From Escherichia phage REP1, in sequence record OQ174500.1: a stretch of 64,000 nt of DNA; one strand, written 5' to 3'. Positions 8,800-14,658 of the stretch are shown here, in pieces; the first letter of the stretch is position 1, and every line of letters begins with the position of its first letter. The translations under genes were made by a program, and so were the position numbers. Under the pieces are notes generated by a model. It did not search any database. It saw only the letters and a program-made list of their open reading frames with translations, and was not told the DNA's origin.

Positions 8800-9117
8800 A
8801 TGACTGATAAACCCGAAATTAATGATGAAGTGGAAAAGCTTATTTCTTCTATTGAAGAAAAGAACCGTCTTGAAGCAGAAAGAAAAGCAAATAAGTTATT
8901 GTCTAAAAACAAACGCGAACTGAACCGTCTTTATAAACACGCTCAGATTGCAGCTGAAAACAATAATTTTGCTCAATACGAATATGCTATCAAGAAAAGT
9001 CGGGATATTCTAAAACAGCCATATAACGATGAACTTATTAGTATTCTTTGGAAGACTACTAGATCGCAGATTGAGGATATGATTGATGCTTACACACGTA
9101 AAATTCAAGCGTCTTAA
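8800..9117 (+). CDS. hypothetical protein (coiled-coil-like)
   Basis: 105-aa ORF. Confidence 0.5.
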   Translation: MTDKPEINDEVEKLISSIEEKNRLEAERKANKLLSKNKRELNRLYKHAQIAAENNNFAQYEYAIKKSRDILKQPYNDELISILWKTTRSQIEDMIDAYTRKIQAS

Positions 9118-9289
9118 AATTAATGCAGGATTTACTGAATCTTTGAATGGTCATCTTTGTGTGAAAATTTCTGAAAAAGAATACCATGATAGTTCAATTA
9201 AAGAAGTTAATCCTCCTATTGTAAGAGCAGACCCTAATATGAAAGTGTGGGTTGATTCTTATCAAGTCAAAAAATGGTGGCAACTGTGA
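9086..9289 (+). CDS. hypothetical protein
   Basis: 67 aa from ATG within track ORF 9083..9289. Confidence 0.45.
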   Translation: MLTHVKFKRLKINAGFTESLNGHLCVKISEKEYHDSSIKEVNPPIVRADPNMKVWVDSYQVKKWWQL

Positions 9290-9464
9290 AAGATGAACGC
9301 CCAGACTTGTGAAATAGATTATAATAAAATTCGTTCCTCTAAAGTAGAAATGATGAGACGCTTTAAAGAGTCTCATGATAAAGCTAAAGCAGAAGGAACT
9401 ATAACATATAAGCGTATAAAATTTAGAAGCTCTAATGAGCCTCTGTATGGTGTATTATGCGGAT

Positions 9465-9485
9465 AGGAGCTTCGGCTCCTATATT
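9465..9485 (+). terminator. hairpin AGGAGCTTCGGCTCCT, probable terminator
   Basis: UUCG-loop hairpin; weak T tract. Confidence 0.5.
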
Positions 9486-9532
9486 GCTTTATAAATTTTT
9501 GGTAAAATAAACCAAAACAATGAGGATATTAA

Positions 9533-10735
9533 ATGAAAGTATGCATTTTTATGGCTCGAGGTCTTGAAGGTTGTGGCGTAACTAAATTTTCTCTTGAGCA
9601 GCGTGATTGGTTTATTAAAAATGGTCATGAAGTAACTTTGGTTTATGCTAAAGATAAATCATTTACCCGTAATTGCGCGCATGATTATAAATCATTTTCA
9701 ATTCCGGTTTTATTGGCAAAAGAATACGATAAAACACTTAAACTGGTAAATGATTGTGATATTCTAATTATCAATTCAGTTCCTGCTACTTCGGTTGAAG
9801 AAGACACTATTAATAACTATAAAAAAATTATTGATAACATTAAACCTTCTGTTCGTGTTGTAGTTTATCAACATGACCATTCTTCTCTTTCTTTGCGTCG
9901 AAATTTGGGATTAGAAGAAACTGTTCGTCGAGCTGATGTTATTTTTAGCCATTCTGATAATGGTGATTTTAATAAAGTTCTGATGAAAGAATGGTATCCA
10001 GAAACTGTTTCTCTGTTTGATGATATTGAAGAAGCACCGACAGTATATAACTTTCAGCCTCCTATGGATATTGCGAAGGTTCGGTCAACATACTGGAAAG
10101 ATGTTTCTGAAATTAACATGAATATCAACCGTTGGATTGGTCGTACGACTACATGGAAAGGTTTTTATCAGATGTTTGATTTTCATGAAAAACATCTTAA
10201 ACCTGCAGGACTAAGTACTATTATGGAAGGTCTGGAACGTTCTCCAGCGTTCATTCCCATTAAAGAAAAAGGAATTCCATACGAGTATTATCGTCTTCAT
10301 CAAGTAGACCAAATTAAAATTGCTCCTAATTTGCCAACGCAAATTCTTGACCGTTATGTAAATAGCGAAATGCTTGAACGTATGAGTAAATCCGGATTTG
10401 GTTATCAGCTGAGTAAGTTGGACAAAAAATATCTACAACGTTCTTTAGAATATACTCATCTCGAGCTTGGTGCATGTGGAACAATTCCGGTATTTTGGAA
10501 ATCTACTGGCGAAAATTTAAAATTCCGTGTTGATAATACTCCTTTGACCTCGCATGATAGCGGTATCATTTGGTTTGATGAAAATGACATGGAATCAACA
10601 TTTGAACGTATTAAAGAACTGTCATCTGACCGAGCTCTTTATGACCGTGAGCGAGAAAAAGCATATGAATTTTTGTATCAGCATCAAGATTCAAGCTTCT
10701 GCTTTAAAGAACAGTTTGACATTATTACAAAATAA
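9533..10735 (+). CDS. agt: DNA alpha-glucosyltransferase
   Basis: 400 aa, same length as T4 alpha-gt; position between 55 and 47. Confidence 0.85.
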   Translation: MKVCIFMARGLEGCGVTKFSLEQRDWFIKNGHEVTLVYAKDKSFTRNCAHDYKSFSIPVLLAKEYDKTLKLVNDCDILIINSVPATSVEEDTINNYKKIIDNIKPSVRVVVYQHDHSSLSLRRNLGLEETVRRADVIFSHSDNGDFNKVLMKEWYPETVSLFDDIEEAPTVYNFQPPMDIAKVRSTYWKDVSEINMNINRWIGRTTTWKGFYQMFDFHEKHLKPAGLSTIMEGLERSPAFIPIKEKGIPYEYYRLHQVDQIKIAPNLPTQILDRYVNSEMLERMSKSGFGYQLSKLDKKYLQRSLEYTHLELGACGTIPVFWKSTGENLKFRVDNTPLTSHDSGIIWFDENDMESTFERIKELSSDRALYDREREKAYEFLYQHQDSSFCFKEQFDIITK

Positions 10736-10756
10736 AGGGCTTCGGCCCTTTAGCTT
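10735..10756 (+). terminator. rho-independent terminator AAGGGCTTCGGCCCTT
   Basis: GC hairpin with UUCG loop right after agt stop. Confidence 0.7.
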
Positions 10757-10782
10757 TATGCGGAGTTTGATATAATGATATT
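10750..10782 (+). promoter_or_regulatory. middle (MotA-dependent) promoter-like element
   Basis: GCTTTA Mot-box-like sequence, 12 nt, then TATAAT. Confidence 0.4.
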
Positions 10783-10911
10783 TCTTGGATATGTGATACT
10801 TTTTCTTGCATTTTATCTATTCACTAGAGCATGTTGGATTGGGTTCTTTAGCACTCCAGATGGATTTATTTCAATAATTTTATTTTGCATTTCAATGACG
10901 GTTCTTGATAT

Positions 10912-11535
10912 ATGAAAAAATATATAACTTATTTAACAATATATAGTGGAGATAAACTTCCTCCTTTTTATATTGGATCTACATCTTTAGATAGGCATTT
11001 AGCTGGATATCATGGATCAGTTTTATCTAAAAAGTATAAGAAAATTTATAATAAAGAACTTTCAGATAACCCGCATCTATTTGATTCATGCATTTTAGCT
11101 GAATTTGATACGCGTGAAGAAGCTATTAAATGCGAGCTATATTATCAACGATTGCATGATGCAGTTAAAAATCCATTATTCTTTAATATGTCATATGCTG
11201 CTCCAAAAGGTTCATTTGGAAGAGATATTAAAGGACAAAATCATCCATTATATGGTTCTCATAATTGTAAAGGAAATATACATTCACATGATCCATTAAC
11301 AGGAAAATCTGCATTTTTACCTTATATTCCAGAAGGTTATGTAAAAGGAAGGTCAAATAAATTTAAAGCTTCATCACATAATAAAGGTAAAAAATGGTAT
11401 AATAACGGAGTTAAGCAAATGTTATGTCATGAACCTCCTGGTCCTGAATGGACAAAAGGAAAAATTAAAGAACTGGTTTCAAAAGCAGCTAAATTAGGAT
11501 GGAAAAGACACCATGAAAATACTAAACTTGGGTGA
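10912..11535 (+). CDS. GIY-YIG family homing-endonuclease-like protein (seg-like)
   Basis: 207 aa; N-terminal TIY-(9 aa)-YIGSTS...R..H module consistent with GIY-YIG; 3' end overlaps gene 47 start by 23 nt. Confidence 0.6.
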   Translation: MKKYITYLTIYSGDKLPPFYIGSTSLDRHLAGYHGSVLSKKYKKIYNKELSDNPHLFDSCILAEFDTREEAIKCELYYQRLHDAVKNPLFFNMSYAAPKGSFGRDIKGQNHPLYGSHNCKGNIHSHDPLTGKSAFLPYIPEGYVKGRSNKFKASSHNKGKKWYNNGVKQMLCHEPPGPEWTKGKIKELVSKAAKLGWKRHHENTKLG

Positions 11536-12532
11536 TTGGCATTTAGGCGTTAAAGCTGATGATGAGTGGATTCGCGGTATTCAAATTGATGGAATTAAGC
11601 AAGCGATAGAATATTCTAAGAAAAATGGAATTACGGTATGGATTCAATACGGTGATATTTTTGATGTGCGAAAAGCGATCACGCATAAAACTATGGAGTT
11701 TGCCCGTGAAATAGTTCAAATGCTTGATGGTGCTGGAATCACATTACATACTATTGTAGGAAATCACGATCTCCACTACAAAAATGTAATGCATCCAAAT
11801 GCTTCTACTGAGCTTTTGGCTAAATATCCTAATGTTAAAGTATATGATAAGCCTACTACAGTAGATTTTGACGGATGTTTGATTGATTTAATTCCTTGGA
11901 TGTGTGAAGAAAATACTGGTGAAATTCTTGAACACATCAAAACTTCATCTGCTTCTTTTTGTGTTGGTCACTGGGAACTGAATGGATTTTATTTTTATAA
12001 AGGAATGAAATCTCACGGTCTTGAACCTGATTTCCTTAAGACTTATAAAGAAGTGTGGTCTGGTCACTTCCATACTATCTCTGAGGCTGCTAACGTCAGA
12101 TATATTGGGACACCATGGACACTAACTGCAGGTGACGAGAATGACCCTCGCGGGTTCTGGATGTTTGATACAGAAACAGAACGAATGGAATTTATTCCAA
12201 ACAATACTACCTGGCATCGTAGAATTCATTATCCATTTAAAGGAAAAATTGACTATAAAGATTTTACAAATCTATCAGTACGTGTTATAGTAACTGAAGT
12301 AGACAAAAATCTGACGAAGTTTGAATCTGAACTAGAGAAAGTTGTGCATTCATTACGAGTTGTGTCAAAGATTGATAACTCTGTCGAGTCAGATGACAGT
12401 GAAGAAGTTGAAGTTCAATCTCTTCAGACGTTGATGGAAGAATACATTAATGCAATTCCAGACATCACTGATTCTGATCGCGAAGCACTTATTCAATATG
12501 CAAATCAGTTATATGTAGAGGCAACACAATGA
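11513..12532 (+). CDS. 47: recombination nuclease subunit gp47 (Mre11/SbcD-like)
   Basis: 339 aa; phosphoesterase motifs GDWHLG, GNHD; matches T4 gp47. Confidence 0.92.
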   Translation: MKILNLGDWHLGVKADDEWIRGIQIDGIKQAIEYSKKNGITVWIQYGDIFDVRKAITHKTMEFAREIVQMLDGAGITLHTIVGNHDLHYKNVMHPNASTELLAKYPNVKVYDKPTTVDFDGCLIDLIPWMCEENTGEILEHIKTSSASFCVGHWELNGFYFYKGMKSHGLEPDFLKTYKEVWSGHFHTISEAANVRYIGTPWTLTAGDENDPRGFWMFDTETERMEFIPNNTTWHRRIHYPFKGKIDYKDFTNLSVRVIVTEVDKNLTKFESELEKVVHSLRVVSKIDNSVESDDSEEVEVQSLQTLMEEYINAIPDITDSDREALIQYANQLYVEATQ

Positions 12533-12792
12533 CTTTTGATGAATTTAAAAATGTTATGATGAGTCAGCATTTTGAATGCGAAGTAAAAGATGATATTGGT
12601 CATAAAGAAATTATTGAATATTGGTTTGAACCGCTAGAGGTTGAAGATAATTGTATTAAAAAGGTTACAGTCTGCACTGACTGGGCTGTATCTTTTAACT
12701 TCAACATTTTAGATAATGACACACCTAAATCATTACGAGATATGGCTGTATCTTGTATTAAGGATGCATACTGTGAAGTTTTCGACATTTGA
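12529..12792 (+). CDS. hypothetical protein (46.2-like position)
   Basis: 87-aa ORF, ATGA overlap with gene 47. Confidence 0.5.
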   Translation: MTFDEFKNVMMSQHFECEVKDDIGHKEIIEYWFEPLEVEDNCIKKVTVCTDWAVSFNFNILDNDTPKSLRDMAVSCIKDAYCEVFDI

Positions 12793-12979
12793 CATTAATG
12801 ATGAATTCATAGCAAACATTGATTATACCGAAGAAGATTCTAGATATGTTGGAATAATTTATATTACATCAAAAACAGCACAAGGTGTTGTTTGCATGGC
12901 TGAATTTGATGAATACTTTTTAGATTATGATGATATGATAGAATGGTCTAAAAGATACATTAAAAGGAATCTTTTGTGA
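12716..12979 (+). CDS. hypothetical protein (46.1-like position); start uncertain (12716 or 12764)
   Basis: Track ORF overlaps the previous ORF; internal ATG at 12764. Confidence 0.4.
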   Translation: MTHLNHYEIWLYLVLRMHTVKFSTFDINDEFIANIDYTEEDSRYVGIIYITSKTAQGVVCMAEFDEYFLDYDDMIEWSKRYIKRNLL

Positions 12980-14658
12980 AGAATTTTAAACTAAACCGAG
13001 TTAGGTATCAAAATATAATGTCAGTAGGTGGAAATCCTATTGACATTCAATTAGATAAGGTTCAAAAAACTCTTATTACTGGACGAAATGGCGGTGGTAA
13101 GTCTACTATGTTAGAAGCCATCACATTTGGGCTTTTTGGCAAGCCATTTCGCGATGTAAAGAAAGGTCAATTAATAAACAGCACAAATAAGAAAGAACTT
13201 TTAGTTGAACTGTGGATGGAATATGATGAGAAAAAGTACTATATCAAAAGAGGACAAAAACCGAACGTTTTTGAAATCACCGTTAACGGTACACGTCTTA
13301 ATGAATCTGCCAGCAGTAAAGATTTCCAAGCAGAATTTGAACAGCTTATCGGAATGTCATATGCCAGTTTCAAGCAGATTGTTGTCCTTGGTACAGCAGG
13401 GTATACCCCTTTCATGGGTTTGTCGACCCCTGCACGAAGAAAGCTTGTGGAAGACCTGCTTGAGGTAGGAACATTAGCTGAAATGGATAAGCTTAATAAA
13501 GCACTAATACGTGAATTAAATTCGCAGAACCAAGTGCTTGATGTTAAAAAAGATAGTATTATCCAACAAATTAAAATATATAATGATAATGTTGAACGCC
13601 AGAAAAAATTGTCTGGTGACAACCTTACTCGTCTACAAAATATGTATGATGATTTGGCAAAAGAAGCTAGAACGCTAAAATCGGAAATAGAAGAAGCTAA
13701 TGAAAGATTAGTTAATATTGTTTTGGATGAAGACCCGACTGATGCATTTAATAAAATCGGTCAAGAAGCAGTTTTAATTAAATCAAAAATTGACTCGTAT
13801 AATAAAGTCATTAATATGTATCACGAAGGTGGATTATGTCCAACCTGTTTGTCACAATTAAGTTCCGGTGATAAAGTTGTTTCTAAAATTAAAGATAAAG
13901 TTTCTGAATGTACGCATTCGTTTGAACAGCTTTCAACACACCGTGATAATTTAAAAGTTCTTGTCGATGAATACCGAGATAATATTAAAACCCAACAGTC
14001 GTTGGCGAATGATATTCGCAATAAAAAGCAATCCCTAATCACAACGGTAGATAAAGCTAAAAAAGTTAAAGCAGCTATAGAAAAAGCATCTTCTGAGTTT
14101 ATTGACCATGCTGATGAAATAGCACTGCTTCAAGAAGAACTTGATAAAATTATTAAGACAAAAACTAATTTAGTAATGGAAAAATACCACCGAGGAATTT
14201 TGACTGATATGCTCAAAGATTCTGGTATTAAAGGTGCTATTATTAAAAAGTACATTCCATTATTTAATAAGCAGATTAACCATTATCTTAAAATAATGGA
14301 AGCGGATTATGTGTTTACATTAGATGAAGAATTTAATGAGACAATTAAATCCCGTGGTCGTGAAGATTTTAGTTATGCTTCATTCAGTCAAGGTGAAAAA
14401 GCGCGAATTGATATTGCTCTTTTATTTACTTGGCGTGATATTGCTGAAAAAGTTTCAGGTGTTAAAATAAACACACTAATTCTTGATGAAGTTTTTGATT
14501 CAGCGACCGACGTTGAAGGTGTAAAAGCTATTTCAACTATTTTAGATAGTTTAAAAAATACTAATGTTTTTGTTATTTCACATAGAGACCATGACCCGCA
14601 AGCATACGGTCAGCATCTTCAAATGAAGAAAGTTGGTCGATTTACTGTAATGGTTTAA
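12976..14658 (+). CDS. 46: recombination nuclease ATPase subunit gp46 (Rad50/SbcC-like)
   Basis: 560 aa; Walker A GRNGGGKST; zinc hook CPTC; GTG start; matches T4 gp46. Confidence 0.92.
   Translation: MKNFKLNRVRYQNIMSVGGNPIDIQLDKVQKTLITGRNGGGKSTMLEAITFGLFGKPFRDVKKGQLINSTNKKELLVELWMEYDEKKYYIKRGQKPNVFEITVNGTRLNESASSKDFQAEFEQLIGMSYASFKQIVVLGTAGYTPFMGLSTPARRKLVEDLLEVGTLAEMDKLNKALIRELNSQNQVLDVKKDSIIQQIKIYNDNVERQKKLSGDNLTRLQNMYDDLAKEARTLKSEIEEANERLVNIVLDEDPTDAFNKIGQEAVLIKSKIDSYNKVINMYHEGGLCPTCLSQLSSGDKVVSKIKDKVSECTHSFEQLSTHRDNLKVLVDEYRDNIKTQQSLANDIRNKKQSLITTVDKAKKVKAAIEKASSEFIDHADEIALLQEELDKIIKTKTNLVMEKYHRGILTDMLKDSGIKGAIIKKYIPLFNKQINHYLKIMEADYVFTLDEEFNETIKSRGREDFSYASFSQGEKARIDIALLFTWRDIAEKVSGVKINTLILDEVFDSATDVEGVKAISTILDSLKNTNVFVISHRDHDPQAYGQHLQMKKVGRFTVMV

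Follow-up and report, generated by a model that had tools for sequence, protein, structure and literature searches.

What is the gene that separates 47.1 from gene 47 in Escherichia phage REP1, and how did it come to lie there? The locus belongs to a stretch of 64,000 nucleotides (nt) of this phage (sequence record OQ174500.1), and this whole stretch is referred to as the window. In the list of open reading frames (ORFs) of the window, an ORF of 207 amino acids (aa) with an ATG start extends from 10912 to 11535 on the + strand. A preliminary description, made from the sequence, regarded it as a GIY-YIG homing-endonuclease-like gene. With 170 homologues at E <= 1e-3 and a ratio of non-synonymous to synonymous differences (pN/pS) of 0.03-0.08, the ORF is a real gene and more than a chance reading frame. 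Its product, as modelled, is a Seg-type free-standing GIY-YIG endonuclease composed of a catalytic domain, a flexible linker, and a DNA-binding region. We consider it likely that this product is an active homing endonuclease and that the 5' end of gene 47 is its target, with a presumed cleavage site there. The homing endonuclease gene (HEG) and its two immediate neighbors are as follows.

10912..11535, + strand: Seg-like free-standing GIY-YIG homing endonuclease gene (HEG), 207 aa
10775..10915, + strand: gene 47.1, 46 aa, predicted membrane protein (phrog_6693, E 1.5e-31; 100% identical to T4 gp47.1)
11513..12532, + strand: gene 47, Mre11/SbcD-like recombination nuclease subunit (Pfam Metallophos; 98.8% identical to T4 gp47)

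Alignment of the window with T4 revealed a clean 601-bp insertion between 47.1 and 47, with a short direct repeat at its boundaries.

10912..10918, + strand: left copy of the 7-bp direct repeat ATGAAAA, at the start of the endonuclease gene (window vs T4 alignment)
11513..11519, + strand: right copy of the 7-bp direct repeat ATGAAAA, at the start of gene 47 (window vs T4 alignment)

In T4, 47.1 and 47 overlap directly by ATGA with nothing between them, and none of the 15 homing endonucleases of T4 is placed at this locus in the published table (PMC2988022); the initial statement on the lack of a seg gene here in T4 was correct. In the window, the start ATG of the ORF overlaps the 47.1 stop TGA as ATGA, which the preliminary description did not mention. 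The 3'-terminal 23 nt of the ORF (11513-11535) are shared with the start of gene 47, and both this overlap and the extent of the ORF are as previously described. The gene is on the same strand as 47.1 and 47, overlaps both, and is flanked by conserved genes, with neither an intron nor an intein around it. Gene 47 has its start codon, and the sequence upstream of that codon, inside the 3' end of the endonuclease gene.

The distribution of the ORF is patchy. In the phage collection, it was found at >= 95% nucleotide identity in 68 records, and the uninterrupted 47.1/47 junction was found in 446 records. Carriers account for ~66 of the ~510 Tequatrovirus-type records (~13%, or ~1 in 8), and an even sample of T4-genus records has an interrupted junction in 6/53. 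The ORF is absent from T2, T4, RB14, RB32, and six IMG/VR T4-like contigs. The scan of IMG/VR for gp47 yielded 28 loci, of which the six of T4's own genus all lack the ORF, and one ORF-less contig encodes a gp47 that is 100% identical to that of the window. Because the carriers are scattered over recombining backgrounds, these patterns agree with the free-standing mobile insertion that was initially proposed, and the comparison across T-even genomes that had been suggested as a check showed a polymorphic gene, not one resident in all T-even phages. No description of an endonuclease between 47.1 and 47 was found in full-text searches of the literature. Dozens of database records already include the gene, labeled "putative homing endonuclease", "HNH endonuclease", or "hypothetical protein", and it appears experimentally uncharacterised. 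An apparent 124-bp internal deletion in KNP1 (KX452694) and KNP5 (L032, KX452698) is a run of N in UNVERIFIED records, and decay of the gene in these phages was rejected. In ESh34 and ERS-1, the match to the ORF is split into two or three segments, for which frameshifts or sequencing errors may be responsible.

The family of the product was examined by structure prediction and profile comparison, which divide the protein into two regions.

10912..11226, + strand: N-terminal GIY-YIG catalytic domain, ~aa 1-105 (pLDDT 93-98 for residues 1-90; fold matches; hhalign)
11227..11532, + strand: flexible linker and C-terminal putative DNA-binding region (motifs GQNHPLYG, IPEGYVKGR, and GKKWYNNG...PEWTKGK; terminal helix)

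Among the 170 homologues collected, 53 were aligned, and an AlphaFold2 model of the ORF product was built on that alignment. The mean predicted local distance difference test score (pLDDT) of the model is 85, with values of 93-98 over residues 1-90. The model has the GIY-YIG alpha/beta fold, with a three-stranded sheet that carries GIY and YIG on strands 1-2 and has flanking helices. When the model was compared with the PDB by Foldseek, the I-TevI catalytic domain occupied ranks 1-3 (probability 0.99-0.89) and Slx1 rank 4. In hhalign, the N-domain of the family matched a profile of I-TevI and SegA-E with a probability of 94% (E 2e-8), which placed Y7, Y20-I-G, E75, and N92 in the catalytic GIY, YIG, Glu, and Asn columns. 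The key residues of the domain are I5-T6-Y7 (GIY), Y20-I21-G22 (YIG), R28, G32-Y33-H34-G35-S36, E75, and N92, and the G32-S36 segment corresponds to the Seg-specific D-G-Y-M-G-S-G motif (GY.GS type). The residues Y33, S39, L56, F57, A71, E75, and N92 are invariant in the 53 aligned homologues, and Y7, Y11, G13, Y20-I-G-S, and R68 are nearly so. More specifically, the catalytic tyrosines Y7 and Y20 are found in 52/53 homologues and E75 and N92 in 53/53. The conserved arginine of the first helix of GIY-YIG domains is R27 in I-TevI, and R28 occupies the canonical column here. Some details of the motif that had been proposed from the sequence require correction. TIY (residues 9-11) and YIG (20-22) are both present, although their spacing is 8 residues, not 9, and the profile alignment assigns GIY to I5-T6-Y7 and not to TIY. 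The R..H element has no literal match, the sequence being R28-H29...H34.

The name under which the family is commonly filed is a different one. PHROGs gave phrog_10820 (E 1.3e-94), which is described as "HNH endonuclease", and a weaker match to phrog_314, "homing endonuclease". The ORF product has no match at E <= 1 to the HNH families in Pfam, and its structural matches are to GIY-YIG proteins only. The common database label "HNH endonuclease" is therefore wrong. The family is systematically called 'HNH endonuclease' in RefSeq NC_054911, NC_054916, NC_054924, and others, and in PHROGs-derived annotation. PADLOC returned only a marginal "HEase" match (E 0.0096), giving no link to a defence system.

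The C-terminal half is more variable than the nuclease domain in its composition and in the confidence of its model. The pLDDT is ~55 at residues 101-120, mostly 84-93 beyond, 64 at 151-160, and <65 from 191. The C-terminal halves of the 53 homologues fall into different types, and 27/53 have NUMOD3 repeats. In the ORF product, NUMOD3 (PF07460) has no match at E <= 1, although a single G.NHP.YG motif is visible, and Pfam detected no zinc finger or helix-turn-helix. The homologues that adjoin gene 47 are only those that keep the C-terminal region of the window type. Full-length orthologues (60-70% identity, same C-terminal type) immediately precede gene 47 in three further lineages, of which two are classified (Mosigvirus and Winklervirus) and the third is Klebsiella phage SmallBear_ER8. 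These orthologues are carried by SmallBear_ER8, Serratia LC53 (Winklervirus), Mosigvirus AV116, and the IMG/VR loci L024 and L027. The ORF is patchy within Mosigvirus-like and other genera as well. The full-length-type orthologues adjoin gene 47, whereas a relative that shares only the N-domain is located elsewhere, in Yersinia phage TG1. A window-type C-terminus at gene 47 and another C-terminus elsewhere indicate that the genomic position follows the putative DNA-binding domain.

The TG1 relative (L049 1498-2181) has the same nuclease domain and a NUMOD3-type C-terminal half. Its gene immediately precedes, and overlaps, that for the large subunit of topoisomerase II. To judge from these sequences, it looks like a case of domain shuffling that would redirect the same nuclease to another conserved gene. 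In the Mosigvirus-like loci L027 (2249-3004) and L048 (1498-2301), a longer orthologue of 251-267 aa has a different extra C-terminal segment. The gp47 proteins beside these longer orthologues have a W9L change in the region of the G-D-W-H motif (MKILNIGDLH).

The identity of the candidate target is suggested by sequence changes at the start of gene 47 that are linked to the element. Flanks of 1.4 kb on the left and 1.5 kb on the right of the insertion point (2.9 kb) were compared among 21 loci, comprising 6 carriers, KNP5, 9 ordinary HEG-less loci, 4 special HEG-less loci, and RB14.

11521..11530, + strand: four synonymous substitutions in gene 47 codons 3-6 (nt 9, 10, 15, 18), candidate altered (immune) target site

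The head of gene 47 reads ATA CTA AAC TTG in all HEG+ loci examined and ATT TTA AAT TTA in 9/9 ordinary HEG-less loci. Only these 4 of the 436 variable columns are fixed differences between carriers and ordinary HEG-less loci. All the other variable columns are mosaic, indicating free recombination around the element. The same association is seen in the databases, where ~62 records match the left and right halves of the junction separately, as expected with the HEG between them, and about 422 HEG-less records have the T4-type head. The preliminary proposal of an endonuclease acting on the alpha-gt/47 region can be refined accordingly, as the linked changes and the drop in diversity reported below point to the 5' end of gene 47.

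A few HEG-less phages have the variant head. It is exact in eight records, namely SHFML-26 (two records), UGKSEcP1, BCPEco_001, BCPSen_003, PBM-1, Ec_YwIITB1, and EPIMAM01, and HEG-less UGKSEcP2 has all four changes with one further mismatch elsewhere in the query. In the comparison of loci, the HEG-less loci with a carrier-type head are L031, L033, L034, and L036 (gene 47 nt 1-30, position ~2523), and RB14 (L035) has one of the four changes. These "resistant" alleles may be explained by precise loss of the element between the ATGAAAA repeats, by short-tract conversion, or by retention of an ancestral allele. Outside T4's genus, the orthologue in L024 (Mosigvirus) overlaps the gene 47 start by 14 nt, and comparison of this locus with its HEG-less relatives found differences at gene 47 nt 9, 10, 12, 15, and 18, followed by 24 identical bases. 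The hotspot at nt 9-18 thus separates this Mosigvirus HEG+ locus from HEG-less relatives too.

Patterns of nucleotide diversity are also one-sided. Over gene 47 nt 21-300, diversity is 0.012-0.023 in HEG+ loci and 0.047-0.11 in HEG-less loci, whereas in the left flank it is equal in the two groups. Such a one-sided hitch-hiking tract would be expected if co-conversion started from a break on the side of gene 47. As for the element itself, the window copy differs from five others by 10-15 synonymous and 1-3 non-synonymous changes (pN/pS ~0.03-0.08). This low ratio speaks for selection on the protein and for a residence time on a par with the divergence of the flanking genes. The window allele is >= 10 synonymous changes away from every database copy compared. 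Four of the five compared database copies are nearly identical to each other over the positions equivalent to 10912-11512, and at least three allelic lineages circulate, namely that of the window, the common type, and that of phiC600P9. The best database match to the window region has 98.2% identity over 3.3 kb.

Taken together, the fold and family, the insertion boundaries, the presence/absence polymorphism, the linkage, the one-sided drop in diversity, the purifying selection, and the same position across genera are directly supported. From here, we infer the nuclease activity, the cleavage position, the immunity provided by the four changes, and the route of expression, which would combine in the following manner. 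The HEG would have no promoter of its own and would be read together with 47.1, 47, and 46 on early transcripts that begin upstream and on those of an upstream middle-type promoter. No good Shine-Dalgarno sequence precedes the gene and its start overlaps the 47.1 stop, so its translation is probably coupled to that of 47.1 or weak. Several T4 seg and mob genes are described as promoter-less and co-transcribed, with coupled or inefficient translation (PMC2988022).

In a mixed infection, the enzyme would cut the HEG-less allele within or close to the initial codons of gene 47, which adjoin the sequence for the conserved G-D-W-H metallophosphatase motif. Enzymes of the Seg type make a site-specific double-strand cut in the allele that lacks the endonuclease, and the ends typically have a 3' overhang of 2 nt. 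Seg-type genes are also preferentially inherited in mixed infections, with co-conversion of markers beside them, and the population pattern seen here would be consistent with such inheritance. The break would then be repaired from the HEG+ genome, copying the 601-bp gene together with ~300 bp of gene 47, and the carrier's own copy would be protected by the four silent changes in codons 3-6. Since the start of gene 47 is inside the 3' end of the HEG, most (imprecise) deletions of the element would damage gene 47.

Several observations weigh against this interpretation. The Pfam model for GIY-YIG (PF01541) scored 21.4 bits (E 3.1e-4) and is sub-threshold, the gathering threshold being 22.6. Sequence searches of the PDB gave no useful match (ribosomal-protein noise with phmmer and nothing with the 53-sequence profile), and a search of NCBIfam with the ORF product gave no match. 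The assignment to the family thus depends on the fold comparison and hhalign. Matches to Pfam GIY-YIG at E <= 0.01 were found in just 14/53 relatives, and the sub-threshold score reflects the limited sensitivity of this model to Seg-like sequences and does not contradict the fold result. The profile search that had been recommended therefore yielded a GIY-YIG match below the cut-off, and the support came from the 94% hhalign probability and the fold. At the canonical Arg position (R28), 31 of the 53 homologues have K, 13 have R, and 6 have N, and SegA-E have no basic residue there, such that the chemistry of the active site is incompletely accounted for. As for the target, the four changes are just 9-18 nt from the insertion and could be hitch-hiking donor DNA rather than the determinant of immunity. 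They are non-synonymous in the overlapping frame of the HEG itself (tail TKLG vs FKFR), in a C-terminal tail that has a pLDDT below 50 and is not conserved. The triplets ATA CTA AAC are also found in the HEG-less Mosigvirus-like locus L023, and the comparison of diversity includes only 6 HEG+ and 9 HEG-less loci. Moreover, the characterised Seg enzymes of T4 are reported to cut often at hundreds of bp from their own genes (PMC2988022), and the true cleavage site could accordingly be elsewhere.

A wider scenario adds to the homing reading an ongoing, lineage-specific arms race between the endonuclease and the head of gene 47, in which the element would also serve interference competition when T4-like phages co-infect a cell. 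In Tequatrovirus, Mosigvirus, Winklervirus, and Klebsiella phages alike, the respective orthologue would be adapted to cutting the local HEG-less form of codons 3-6. Carriers would escape by silent recoding, as would a small number of 'resistant' phages that lack the HEG (SHFML-26, UGKSEcP1, and others). As the target is a gene for an Mre11-like nuclease needed for break processing, the element would act as a weapon and not only as a selfish gene. As a whole, this scenario is speculative and rather improbable.

Alternatively, the gene may be an inactive or domesticated relic that is kept for the embedded gene 47 start and initiation region, or as a DNA-binding regulator. Deletion would come at a cost, given the 23-nt overlap with gene 47, and the non-conserved Arg column and the sub-threshold Pfam score would both be accommodated. 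Embedded host signals are also described as favoring the retention of seg genes, and I-TevI as repressing its own promoter (PMC2988022). However, the low pN/pS applies to the whole ORF with the nuclease domain included, and the catalytic Y7, Y20, E75, and N92 are invariant or nearly so. The element is patchily distributed in strict linkage with a variant target sequence, and the HEG-less genomes with an intact 47.1/47 junction indicate that it is dispensable for gene 47 expression. A relic is therefore unlikely.

The enzyme may instead act mainly as a weapon of competition, through marker exclusion. Cleavage of gene 47 in a relative that infects the same cell would disable that phage's gene for the Mre11-like nuclease and favor the alleles of the carrier. 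The evidence is the same as for homing. The presumed target is an important recombination and replication gene, the reduced diversity reaches ~300 bp into gene 47 in carriers, and localised marker exclusion is ascribed to SegG and SegF (PMC2988022). However, the molecular steps are identical to those of ordinary homing, so that computation cannot separate the two, and the carrier's gp47 would act in trans in a mixed infection and blunt the knock-out. We regard exclusion as the main role to be quite improbable. Finally, the gene could have resided in the a-gt/47 region ancestrally and disappeared from T4 and most of its relatives, with the 'HNH' label taken at face value. Such an origin would fit its position in several genera and the description of phrog_10820, but this reading is already contradicted by the data (presence in ~13% of records scattered over recombining backgrounds, patchiness in other genera, an empty site that is a clean 47.1/47 ATGA overlap exactly conserved in hundreds of records, no HNH family at E <= 1, and a GIY-YIG fold) and is hardly credible.

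Signals upstream of the gene bear on its expression. The gene a-gt (9533..10735; Pfam AGT E 1.8e-237) is the upstream neighbor of the locus and is followed by two features.

10733..10752, + strand: GC-rich hairpin AAAGGGC-TTCG-GCCCTTT, terminator-like, directly after the a-gt stop and identical in T4
10753..10776, + strand: T4 middle-promoter-like site (pattern match), with a GCTT MotA-box core at 10753 and TATAAT at 10771-10776

The hairpin was found by a terminator scan, in which the T-run rule was satisfied on the minus strand only, and the GenBank records G2540 and fPS-90 have a terminator annotated at the equivalent position. The GCTT at 10753 corresponds to the core of the MotA-box consensus. 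The record of phage Lutter has a promoter annotated at the position equivalent to 10753..10776. The terminator/middle-promoter pair noted in the preliminary description is present at the level of sequence, with equivalents annotated in relatives. The TATAAT -10 element overlaps the 47.1 ATG, such that transcripts from this site would begin inside 47.1. As judged from its sequence, the predicted promoter would yield transcripts that carry the endonuclease gene and genes 47-46. A pattern scan found no late-promoter TATAAATA within 9000-13500, and a scan for sigma-70 promoters was uninformative (5 matches vs 7.5 expected). A 5-bp hairpin at 10948-10964 within the ORF was judged to be a chance occurrence.

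Other endonuclease insertions are found nearby in related phages. Several T4-genus phages have a different annotated 'homing endonuclease' between 46.1 and 46, of ~285 aa (205 aa in T2), at the following positions.

L031 3986-4840 (SHFML-26): 46.1/46 'homing endonuclease'
L038 4517-5371 (Lutter): 46.1/46 'homing endonuclease'
L036 3986-4840: 46.1/46 'homing endonuclease'
L041 3986-4600 (T2): 46.1/46 'homing endonuclease'

This insertion position is ~1.4 kb downstream of the window ORF and is empty in the window, where 46.1 abuts 46 at 12976 (compare 12716-12979). The presence of this endonuclease and of the 47.1/47 ORF indicates that the gene 46/47 operon has been the target of at least two independent endonuclease insertions. 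In T4, the HNH endonuclease gene mobB (L001 6886-7680) is located between a-gt and a-gt.2, where the window has only a 66-nt spacer (9466-9533). When T4 SegA-G, I-TevI, I-TevII, and EndoII were used as tblastn queries, the window showed no further GIY-YIG gene. Provided that the 64 kb extends to their loci, as would be expected from the gene order, SegA and SegF are likewise missing.

With respect to significance, these findings extend the T-even set by a Seg-type endonuclease that is uncharacterised, has a well-defined candidate target, and occupies a locus empty in T4, and they correct a widespread database mislabel. The prediction of homing is easy to examine in natural material, as ~66 carrier records, ~435 sensitive records, and 8-9 HEG-less "resistant" records differ at four silent bases. 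The gene belongs to a thoroughly studied class, and the understanding of these elements is unchanged.

Comparison with known systems places the gene more precisely within that class. The closest entries are phrog_10820 and the BASEL phage AndreasVesalius bas42_0170 'putative homing endonuclease', which are the same gene at the same locus (98-99.5% protein identity); these are annotations only and present no real difference from the window gene. I-TevI is the GIY-YIG homing endonuclease of the td intron, and structures of its catalytic domain are available (1MK0, 1LN0). Unlike I-TevI, the ORF product is not intron-encoded, the identity between the two is ~17-21%, and Pfam found no zinc finger or helix-turn-helix. 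I-TevI is nevertheless the top structural match, the layout of catalytic domain, linker, and DNA-binding domain is common to both, and the presumed target is close to the insertion point, as for intron endonucleases.

Further comparison was made with all ten GIY-YIG proteins of the T4 record, used as a 10-sequence database. SegE is encoded between inh and uvsW and cuts uvsW, and SegB is encoded in the tRNA region. Both differ from the ORF product in insertion site and target, the presumed target here being gene 47. The identity is low, the GIY-YIG hairpin is 2 residues longer in the ORF product, and SegA-E have acidic or neutral residues in place of R28. However, SegE aligns with the ORF product over nearly the full length (28% over 196 aa, E 1e-4) and shares the Seg-type G-Y-x-G-S motif and the C-terminal repeats IPEG(F/Y)(V/I)KG and W(V/Y)NNG...P(D/E)(G)(F/W).KG. 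The C-terminus of SegB has IPEGWFKGR where the ORF product has IPEGYVKGR, and both SegE and SegB are encoded by free-standing genes of sporadic distribution. SegG, a free-standing GIY-YIG endonuclease encoded between genes 32 and 59 of T4, cuts gene 32 of T2. It is a distant relative with another locus and target, its C-terminal half does not align, and its activity has been demonstrated, whereas that of the ORF product is predicted. SegG is the best T4 match to the N-domain (27% over 109 aa, E 8e-6) and has PP(F/Y)YIGS, E..YQ, NP.(F/Y)FN, and G..HP in common with the ORF product. The two genes are also alike as promoter-less cassettes that are transcribed with a neighboring essential gene and located immediately upstream of the target, as the organization of SegG is described (PMC2988022).

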